Part shown: piece by piece, positions 45,923 through 49,224 of the stretch
Position numbering within the stretch: position 1 is the first letter of the stretch
How the letters are laid out: the number at the start of each line of letters is the position of its first letter
NCBI GenBank assembly: GCA_043821365.1
Contig: JBDRCX010000006.1
Span: 416,001-480,000, forward strand
Direction: 5' to 3'
DNA: 64,000 bases
Source: Candidatus Micrarchaeota archaeon
GTDB lineage: Archaea; Micrarchaeota; Micrarchaeia; Anstonellales; Bilamarchaeaceae
The notes under the pieces: generated by a model
What the model was told of the DNA's origin: nothing
Database searches by the model: none
The model's input: only the letters and a program-made list of their open reading frames with translations
Made by a program: the position numbers and the translations under genes

Positions 45923-46486
45923 ATGCTTATTATTTTTGAAGGAATTGATGGTTGTGGTAAAGAAACCCAAATAAAACTGCTAAAGGAAAAATTAGGGGCA
46001 GTGGTGTTGAAATATCCCACAACTAATAACAAAAAAATCAATGATTATCTAGAGAAAAAAATCACAATAGAACCAAAAGAACTATTTATGCTATTTCTTT
46101 CAGATATAGAAGAAGATCAAGGAAATATCAAAAAAGCACTTACTGAAAACAAATATGTTATTCTTGATCGTTATATATTTTCTACAATTGCCTATGAACT
46201 TGATAGCTTTACATATCCAGAAGCAAAAAAACTCGTTGAAGAAAAAAACCTTCTGAAACCAGACATGGTTATTCTACTTGACATTGATGAAAAAACTTCA
46301 CAGGAGAGAAAAAGCAGGCAAAAACAACTAGATCGTTATGAAGAAAATGCAGTTTATCTGAAAAAAGTTCGTGAAACTTTCCTGAAACTCTTTGGGGAAA
46401 GATTTTTAACTTCGACTTGGCATAAAATTGATGCTCGTAAAGATATTCAATCCATTCATTTCGAACTAATAAAAATTTTAGAATAG
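45923..46486 (+). CDS. tmk: Thymidylate kinase
   Basis: FEGIDGCGKETQ, ILDRYIFS, PDMVILLD. Confidence 0.95.
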   Translation: MLIIFEGIDGCGKETQIKLLKEKLGAVVLKYPTTNNKKINDYLEKKITIEPKELFMLFLSDIEEDQGNIKKALTENKYVILDRYIFSTIAYELDSFTYPEAKKLVEEKNLLKPDMVILLDIDEKTSQERKSRQKQLDRYEENAVYLKKVRETFLKLFGERFLTSTWHKIDARKDIQSIHFELIKILE

Positions 46487-46564
46487 CCTCTTTTTTCAGG
46501 CATAATTCTTTCTGCGGAAATAAGGTGTCCACTAGTATTTATACAAGGTCTCAGTAGAGATTGC

Positions 46565-47200
46565 ATGCATGCCAATAAAGAGCAGCTTGCAGAAATCGTG
46601 GGCATATTCCTAGGTGATGGTAGTATCTATGCTAACAAACAGCACGGTATTGTTCAAATTGTGATCACTGGCCATTTACAACACGATTTCGAATATTTGG
46701 TCCATTATGTTAAACCAATGTTGGAAAAGAATCTATCTGCAAAATTTAAAATAAAACGGCACCGTTTGAATGCAATCCAAATCTATAACCAAACTAAAAG
46801 TACTGCTTCAAAACTTAATGAACTTGGCATCCCAACTGGAAATAAAGTCGTCAATAACATTCAAATTCCTTCTTGGATTTTTGGTTCCAAAAAATACCTA
46901 AGAGCATGCATAAGAGGCTTAATTGATACTGATGGTTCAGTATGTCCAATCACTGGCAGGAATTACCCTTATATATGGTTTAAGTGTAGAATTCCAAAAC
47001 TAAGAAAATCTTTTTCAAAGGCCTTGGAGCTGTTAAATTATAAAATTGCCAAATGGTCTATTAGGCCAGATGGGGTTGGTCAGACGTATATCGGTCAAAA
47101 ATCACTTATCCATAGATATTATAAAGAAATCGGCTCTAGAAATACCTACCATATGCATAGACTTAGTTCGCTCCGTTCGTCTAGACCGGTCAAACACTAA
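46565..47200 (+). CDS. Free-standing two-motif LAGLIDADG (DOD/intein-type) endonuclease-like protein
   Basis: LAEIVGIFLGDGS and CIRGLIDTDGS; no intein splicing motifs. The 3' end overlaps tRNA-Glu. Confidence 0.88.
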   Translation: MHANKEQLAEIVGIFLGDGSIYANKQHGIVQIVITGHLQHDFEYLVHYVKPMLEKNLSAKFKIKRHRLNAIQIYNQTKSTASKLNELGIPTGNKVVNNIQIPSWIFGSKKYLRACIRGLIDTDGSVCPITGRNYPYIWFKCRIPKLRKSFSKALELLNYKIAKWSIRPDGVGQTYIGQKSLIHRYYKEIGSRNTYHMHRLSSLRSSRPVKH

Positions 47201-47307
47201 CAGTTCTAAATTGTAAGTGGCCTATGGATAGTGGACTTTCATGCGCCTTTTTTAATCAAAAAGCGCGGAGAACTCCATCGACCTGGGTTCAAATCCCAGA
47301 CGGAGCA
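47170..47307 (+). tRNA. tRNA-Glu(TTC) with two introns (D-loop, ~47194-47224; 37/38, 31 nt, 47242-47272)
   Basis: Acceptor GCTCCGT/ACGGAGC, anticodon stem GTGGA/TCCAT, T-arm CTGGG-TTCAAAT-CCCAG, BHB CTTT/GGAG at 37/38. D-loop intron borders are approximate. Confidence 0.88.
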
Positions 47308-48961: not shown

Positions 48962-49224
48962 GAGAAATGGGCTTCCCGGTTAGCCCTGGCAAATATACAA
49001 GGAGCCACTATCATCGGCTCAATCCTGGATCTTACAAGCACGGCACAATACGCTTAGGGCTGCACCTTCCGGCCTGACCCGGTTCACATATCATCCCGCC
49101 ATATAAGGCAGGACGTCAACACTTAAGATAATGGGCATGAATACTTGACAAAACGCCCCGGGCATTTGATCCGTCTAAGAGGATTTACGGTACGGGAGCC
49201 CCTAATTCCCATCTAGCCCATCTC
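48962..49224 (-). ncRNA. ffs: Archaeal SRP (7S) RNA
   Basis: Helix 8 GGGTCAGGCC-GGAA-GGTGCAGCC; Alu helices GGGA/TCCC and CCGT/ACGG with complementary loops; terminal helix GGGCT/AGCCC (core 48969-49219). Confidence 0.92.

Follow-up and report, generated by a model that had tools for sequence, protein, structure and literature searches.

The window, by which we mean the whole 64,000-nucleotide stretch of DNA analyzed here, comes from a Micrarchaeota genome whose genus we judge, after the two closest homologues, to be that of Candidatus Bilamarchaeum. A free-standing LAGLIDADG endonuclease gene (hereafter the ORF) lies between tmk and a tRNA-Glu gene, in the order tmk, ORF, tRNA-Glu. The features of the locus, all on the plus strand, are as follows.

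45923-46486, plus strand: tmk (thymidylate kinase), the host gene 5′ of the ORF, followed directly by tRNA-Glu in ORF-less relatives
46397-46410, plus strand: BRE/TATA-like stretch inside the 3′ end of tmk, the probable ancestral promoter of tRNA-Glu
46509-46529, plus strand: near-palindromic promoter box with the core GCGGAAAT, common to the radA operon, nreA and other free-standing LAGLIDADG genes
46538-46543, plus strand: TATA box, recognized by its sequence and by its fixed spacing from the box core in relatives; its spacing would fit a leaderless start at the ATG
46565-47200, plus strand: gene for a free-standing, monomeric, two-motif LAGLIDADG endonuclease of 211 amino acids (Pfam LAGLIDADG_3 and LAGLIDADG_2)
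47117-47126, plus strand: TATA-like stretch in the 3′ end of the ORF, about 50 nucleotides before the tRNA, a weak candidate for the tRNA's own promoter
47170-47193, plus strand: exon 1 of tRNA-Glu(UUC) (nucleotides 1-21), which doubles as codons for ORF residues 202-210
47194-47225, plus strand: 21/22 intron of 32 nucleotides with a relaxed bulge-helix-bulge (BHB), containing the ORF stop codon; within the genus, in ORF-bearing alleles only
47226-47241, plus strand: exon 2 of tRNA-Glu, from the 3′ strand of the D-stem to A37, with the anticodon TTC
47242-47272, plus strand: 37/38 intron, 31 nucleotides, canonical
47273-47307, plus strand: exon 3 of tRNA-Glu, then a T-rich run

The ORF and the tRNA-Glu gene, which Rfam places at 47170-47307, overlap by 31 nucleotides, and the TAA stop codon (47198-47200) occupies nucleotides 5-7 of the 21/22 intron. 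The first-pass annotation had described an ORF that runs into the 5′ exon of tRNA-Glu and ends in its intron, and the coordinates and the Rfam tRNA agree with that description. The spliced tRNA has 75 nucleotides and the anticodon UUC, and is identical at 73 of the 75 positions to an intron-less allele of a relative (L060). With default settings, ARAGORN reported no tRNA anywhere in the window; the Pyl identity that it assigned at a relaxed threshold was rejected, as both Rfam and the intron-less allele give Glu(UUC). An ORF ending before 47170 in close homologues would have marked the overlap as a read-through artefact, and this is not what is seen: both orthologues also overlap the tRNA. The overlap alone is nevertheless unremarkable, because tmk reads into tRNA-Glu itself in two ORF-less relatives (L048 and L052). 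Only the last codon and the stop codon of the ORF lie inside the intron, and there are no intein domains and no group I match, so the gene is neither intron- nor intein-encoded. Searches for domains, Rfam families and tRNA stubs detected no intein, group I intron or upstream tRNA half around the ORF, as had been noted from the sequence. Elsewhere in the window, an SRP RNA lies at 48967-49221 on the minus strand; its best-scoring model is the one for the bacterial large SRP.

The domain search and the structure model reveal two LAGLIDADG helices and a two-domain saddle fold. The model has a pLDDT of 95 and matches PI-PfuI, I-Tsp061I and I-DmoI (TM about 0.65-0.72). D18, D123 and K94, corresponding to one acidic catalytic residue per motif and a basic pocket residue, are invariant in 81 of 81 homologues. 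Among the three orthologues dN/dS is 0.08-0.14 at dS 0.8-1.3, similar to tmk. The ORF is intact and, judged from these ratios, under purifying selection, and by sequence and model the protein looks like an active nuclease. Broken copies of the family also exist, at C6:37299-37944 of the same genome and at L140 and L153.

It is evident from the relatives that the ORF is optional at a fixed site between tmk and tRNA-Glu, with empty alleles in other genomes. It occupies the site in 3 of the 40 genus genomes searched. The tRNA-Glu gene is readable in 24 genomes, 3 with and 21 without the ORF, and in most of the ORF-less alleles the end of tmk either lies less than 30 nucleotides from tRNA-Glu or overlaps it. 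The 21/22 intron is present in all three ORF-bearing alleles and in none of the 21 ORF-less ones; the three carriers form one clade on the tmk tree, nested among ORF-less alleles, so this contrast represents one event and not three. Across the wider family, a 5′-half intron is found in 48 of the 69 ORF-adjacent Glu/Gln tRNAs versus 6 of the 33 ORF-less alleles, the latter including two intron-bearing controls added by hand (L215 and L249). When only Woesearchaeota-labelled records are counted, the numbers are 14/24 versus 6/33. The controls were drawn from Woesearchaeales by 3′-end pattern and are taxonomically narrower than the ORF set; Fisher P values overstate the link with introns for this reason and because related loci are not independent. 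The 69 loci are the classified subset of the ORF loci, 11 further ORF loci and some controls being unclassified. Twenty-one of the 69 tRNAs next to an ORF have no 5′-half intron. An ORF-less intron thus accompanies the endonuclease gene, though not obligatorily, and the tie between the nuclease and tRNA introns proposed in the first-pass annotation has comparative support both within the genus and in the wider family. None of the 43 Woesearchaeales control tRNA loci carries a cassette, from which it follows that empty targets abound and that the element has not swept.

The 37/38 intron behaves differently. The two sister alleles that carry the ORF lack it, whereas it is common where there is no ORF; it is therefore independent of the cassette. 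The 37/38 introns of the genus (window 47242-47272; L044-L067) contain a repeated T-run/A-run hairpin that is also found in 15/16 introns and between genes. It resembles a repeat family of the MITE or REP type from which tRNA introns are supplied. The spot just upstream of tRNA-Glu holds what resembles a TnpB/IS200-IS605 right end in one genome (G007, L050) and another gene in a second (G004, L049), which indicates that the site attracts several kinds of insert.

We found six free-standing LAGLIDADG genes in the genome of the window, four of which end at the 5′ end of a tRNA gene: Glu, Phe, Arg(UCG) and, for a frameshifted copy, initiator Met. The binomial probability of this is about 3×10−5, assuming about 46 tRNAs among about 1250 genes. 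The remaining two lie in a duplicated pth2 start and before rtcB. In the genus, all 22 other free-standing matches adjoin a tRNA: 17 precede it and share its strand, and 5 follow it and are encoded on the other strand. The 3′ end of the ORF faces the tRNA in every one of the 22. The same holds among GTDB relatives, for which the best 80 loci were taken. Except for one at a contig edge, all of these (79) end at a tRNA gene, nearly always Glu or Gln, a branch that was sampled most deeply because the search was seeded with the window protein. The survey for LAGLIDADG-tRNA adjacency that the first-pass annotation had proposed thus gave tRNA-linked loci throughout. The commonest stop codons of these ORFs are the tRNA's own TAG at nucleotides 13-15 (35 of the 69 classified loci) and the one at nucleotides 8-10 (13 of 69).

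On a quick protein tree of the relatives gathered by that search, the tRNA label changes 9 times versus at least 39 times in shuffles, and the window protein groups with an Aenigmarchaeota record, not with the paralogues of its own genome. Protein phylogeny in this tree follows tRNA identity, across host phyla. The labels "Methanosarcinales", "Thermoplasmatales" and "Omnitrophota" were not taken as proof of transfer; L149 and L151, which carry a Woesearchaeota-like radA operon, may be mislabelled or misbinned. Viral contigs yielded intein matches only, and no free-standing copy. These results suggest a widespread family at tRNA genes that is probably selfish, and the adjacency and the target-faithful clades lend comparative support to the earlier proposal of homing to tRNA loci. 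We found no paper on a tRNA-linked LAGLIDADG family or on the promoter box described below, in a search mostly outside subscription journals; the one paper found that links DPANN archaea with LAGLIDADG proteins concerns rRNA group I introns (PMC6125680).

Several family members are arranged in other ways. Five copies in the iMet- and Phe-linked clades (L017, L018, L023, L027 and L034) follow their tRNA and are encoded on the other strand, while close relatives are located upstream of it; two of these tRNAs contain a T-loop intron, on their ORF-facing side. In the window's own genome, a possible 5′ stub of tRNA-Arg lies upstream of the LAGLIDADG gene that enters tRNA-Arg(UCG) (L078, G000:C6:~311600, minus strand). 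A free-standing HTH-LAGLIDADG gene (L076, G000:C6:318905-319909) separates a short stub of the pth2 start, with a radA-type box at its end, from a full-length pth2 whose start differs. The reading frame of rtcB (L077, G000:C6:~673620-676547) is broken after its PDGH codons by a 28-nucleotide hairpin insertion that resembles a BHB-type mRNA intron, and a box-less free-standing LAGLIDADG gene lies directly upstream (C6:672775-673617).

At 13 of the 69 loci the first 20 nucleotides of the tRNA occur a second time (at least 15 of 20 identical) upstream of the ORF, usually right before its TATA box. In these relatives the ORF is preceded by a stub (from nucleotide 1 to about nucleotide 25) and followed by a complete tRNA. 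At six of the seven stub loci whose downstream tRNA has a D-loop intron, the stub passes the intron site by 3-4 nucleotides, intron-free, and then breaks, so that the breakpoints fall within about 4 nucleotides of position 21/22. Intron-less new copies often differ from the stub in the D-arm (L173, L179, L183, L184 and L189). The stubs kept by these 13 relatives suggest insertion in the D-arm by an element that provides a new tRNA start of its own. In the simplest reading of the sequences, the stub would be the recipient's original tRNA start, and the element would have entered at about nucleotide 24-25, bringing with it an intron-carrying 5′ end. The end of the ORF and the start of the tRNA would then be one inherited unit, which explains the overlap. 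Upstream of the window ORF and its two orthologues no stub was detected (shuffle P = 0.47-0.8; P = 0.8 for the window), so at this locus the replacement start is inferred from the family. Duplicated 5′ stubs are also found 100-180 nucleotides upstream of ORF-less Woesearchaeales tRNA-Glu/Gln genes (L206, L210, L218, L224, L228, L240 and L247). Several of these loci share a conserved spacer motif, and they could be cassettes that have lost the ORF or a small non-autonomous element.

The promoter box lies about 16 nucleotides (fixed at 16-17) before the TATA box in 19 of the 22 genus ORFs. A matrix trained solely on the genus ORF sites was scanned over the window's own genome, and its top ranks were, in order, the window ORF, the pth2 ORF, the radA operon, a small ORF and a degenerate match lacking a TATA box. 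The next rank was a frameshifted LAGLIDADG gene that protein searches had missed, and nreA ranked lower. The frameshifted gene thus found via its promoter box precedes the initiator tRNA (L073, G000:C6:37299-37944, minus strand). Of 30 genus genomes, 29 have the box ahead of the radA operon. Ahead of nreA, 18 of the 30 have a site that scores 10 or more, as does 1 of 30 controls. In seven other genomes whose ORFs have a different box, all seven ORF boxes match the radA box of the same genome, with the same spacing. At four stub-type loci in Pacearchaeota, the ORF promoter has no match in the 800 nucleotides upstream of radA, which may sit deeper in an operon there.

A conserved box at fixed spacing before the repair genes radA and nreA is a trait of a DNA-damage regulon, and we infer that the genes carrying it are damage-induced, from their company and by analogy with Sulfolobus (PMC6061795). 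Other roles of the box were considered and rejected. It is missing before both orc1/cdc6 genes of the window's own genome, unlike what Sulfolobus-style Orc1 autoregulation predicts. It is not an element end or insertion site, since it precedes radA and nreA regardless of cassettes; and it is not a tRNA promoter, being absent before ORF-less tRNA-Glu and following the ORF even where this is opposite to the tRNA. Two small ORFs are also associated with the box. The box precedes a 43-codon ORF with a long leader (L072, G000:C6:~707350-707610, minus strand), a probable member of the radA regulon. In the interval from the box to radA there is an 86-amino-acid ORF that matches no NCBIfam entry (L071:444-701, G000:C6:187043-187303); comparable short ORFs lie ahead of radA in relatives from Micrarchaeota and Woesearchaeota.

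The first-pass annotation had taken the TTTATA at 46538 for the only TATA-like box of the locus and had proposed one transcript for the ORF and the tRNA. The former does not stand, for there are two more such stretches, at 46397-46410 and 47117-47126. The stretch in tmk is kept in 24 of 28 relatives even at a GC3 of 0.7-0.85, and lies 81-114 nucleotides before tRNA-Glu in ORF-less alleles. The stretch at 47117-47126 could also stem from the Tyr-Tyr-Lys codons there. In many ORFs of the family, TATA-like hexamers peak 40-60 nucleotides before the tRNA, the same distance as in ORF-less tRNA genes, and codons may cause part of this peak. A single transcript for the ORF and the tRNA is possible but not required. 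If the two are co-transcribed, removal of the ORF stop codon by RNase P, as the first-pass annotation also envisaged, is plausible; according to the structure model, the 201-codon message that would remain ends close to the end of the folded domain. A full-length but low-scoring candidate for the archaeal RNase P RNA (37.5 bits, cut-off 84) is found in the same genome (L253, G000:C6:111852-112172), as is a gene for pelota.

Comparison of these loci points to a free-standing homing-endonuclease cassette that parasitizes tRNA-Glu and is shielded by its own intron, which we regard as the probable explanation. The enzyme would cut the uninterrupted D-arm (about nucleotides 10-35, centred near 21-25) of an ORF-less tRNA-Glu allele met during DNA exchange. 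RadA-dependent repair would then copy in the promoter, the ORF and the intron-bearing replacement 5′ end of the tRNA. The intron would split the target and make the donor allele immune, and the host splicing endonuclease, whose gene is present in the same genome, would remove it and restore the tRNA. Several of the intron-less alleles next to an ORF have D-arm substitutions relative to their stub, and immunity is assumed there. The radA-type box would time expression to when recombination is on, and the overlap would arise incidentally, through the linkage of the ORF to the tRNA start it brings along. The least certain step is a damping of expression: cleavage by RNase P of a joint transcript, if there is one, would yield an mRNA without a stop codon and without about 10 C-terminal codons.

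The same observations bear on other explanations. The protein could be a domesticated, WhiA-like DNA-binding or repair protein of the host damage regulon, its link with tRNA a historical relic. It has the box in common with radA and nreA, its dN/dS is as low as that of tmk, the long purifying selection (dS about 1) would fit a host function too, and WhiA is among the fold matches (ranks 29 and 38). However, mobile elements also capture host damage boxes, as bacterial integrases under LexA control illustrate. WhiA has lost its catalytic residues, whereas the catalytic aspartates are invariant here. The window protein also lacks the vertical, near-universal presence of a WhiA-like gene within its lineage: the site is occupied in few genus genomes, the target-faithful clades span phyla, and frameshifted copies exist. 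We thus consider this reading rather unlikely. A role as an RNA maturase that aids splicing or processing of the adjoining non-canonical intron is very improbable. Group I maturases are known among LAGLIDADG proteins, the fold matches include bI3 and an I-AniI-type entry, and the ORF co-occurs with the 21/22 intron. On the other hand, many D-loop introns have no ORF and many ORFs no intron, a DNA-repair box is ill-suited to such a role, and the enzyme that cuts BHB introns is the splicing endonuclease of the host; the related enzyme of ARMAN-2 handles relaxed, non-canonical motifs alone (PMC3239211). The suggestions of a domesticated regulator or a maturase in the first-pass annotation are therefore both weakened by patchy presence, invariant catalytic residues and broken copies.

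It is also conceivable, though distinctly unlikely, that a homing element targets the junction of flank and tRNA or a nearby site, and that the D-loop intron hitch-hikes without conferring immunity. The intron is missing from about 30% of the tRNAs next to an ORF, genomes of this kind are rich in introns in any case (PMC3239211), the five downstream copies in the genus lie on the strand opposite to their tRNA, and the IS-like end in G007 and the other gene in G004 occupy the same spot. However, the sequences flanking the tRNA upstream show no relationship from host to host, which would leave no conserved junction to target, and neither the stub breakpoints close to the intron site nor the strong enrichment of introns next to the ORF favors this reading. 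Chance adjacency or a read-through artefact in a compact genome has a negligible probability. The entry of host tmk into the same tRNA in two relatives is in its favor, but it is refuted by the adjacency at 79 of 79 and 22 of 22 loci and by the overlap conserved in both orthologues.

More broadly, and more tentatively, DPANN-type archaea might harbor a radiation of free-standing LAGLIDADG cassettes, in which each clade would cut the D-arm of one tRNA, survive via an intron-immunized replacement start and be wired into the lineage-specific radA regulon; we put this somewhat short of probable. If true, such cassettes would actively drive both the acquisition and the dissemination of non-canonical introns in archaeal tRNA genes, and likewise of tRNA 5′ fragments. 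The debate over why introns arise at unusual positions of archaeal tRNA genes is an old one (PMC3239211, PMC3293823), to which the cassette would contribute both a selective reason, immunity to the adjoining nuclease, and a vehicle, homing. The idea is testable with one purified protein and two short natural DNA substrates. Collaborative homing, known from phages, would also operate on cellular chromosomes. The shared box suggests a previously undescribed DNA-repair regulon of Micrarchaeota that is used by selfish genes, and the family could be a large source of compact meganucleases with predictable targets.

Several known systems share part of this arrangement. The archaeal monomeric LAGLIDADG enzymes I-DmoI, I-Tsp061I and PI-PfuI have the same fold, and both of their catalytic acidic residues are kept here, but they sit in rRNA introns or inteins, whereas the window gene lies outside any intron and has its own promoter. 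The Sulfolobus Orc1-2 element ANTTTC is likewise promoter-proximal and shared by damage-response genes (PMC6061795), and the left arm of the box described here is often similar to it; in contrast, this box is longer, near-palindromic and lineage-specific. Phage collaborative (trans) homing by F-CphI at psbA (PMC3984707) also combines a free-standing endonuclease with an ORF-less intron in the presumed target. That intron is of group I, while the present case involves an archaeal chromosome, a LAGLIDADG protein and a protein-spliced BHB tRNA intron, and the ORF overlaps the target gene and comes with a replacement 5′ end. SegB of phage T4 is another free-standing homing endonuclease in a tRNA region, where it recognizes a conserved tRNA motif and drives the inheritance of itself and of tRNA genes (PMC2330249). 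It is a GIY-YIG enzyme of a phage that uses a T-loop motif of many tRNAs, whereas each clade here is tied to one tRNA type with a presumed D-arm target. The free-standing endonuclease genes at atp9, atp6 and cox1 in fungal mitochondria (PMC7487136) share the insertion at a conserved gene and the duplication of one end, but these are organelle protein genes without an intron shield or a repair-regulon promoter. The tRNA-Thr(GGU) locus of Caldiarchaeum subterraneum (Sugahara et al. 2012, PMC3293823) has the same order of 5′ fragment, insert and complete tRNA with an extra intron (24/25); its insert, known from one population, was read as a recombinase or plasmid remnant, and differs from the present cassette in having no LAGLIDADG gene and no overlap with the tRNA.
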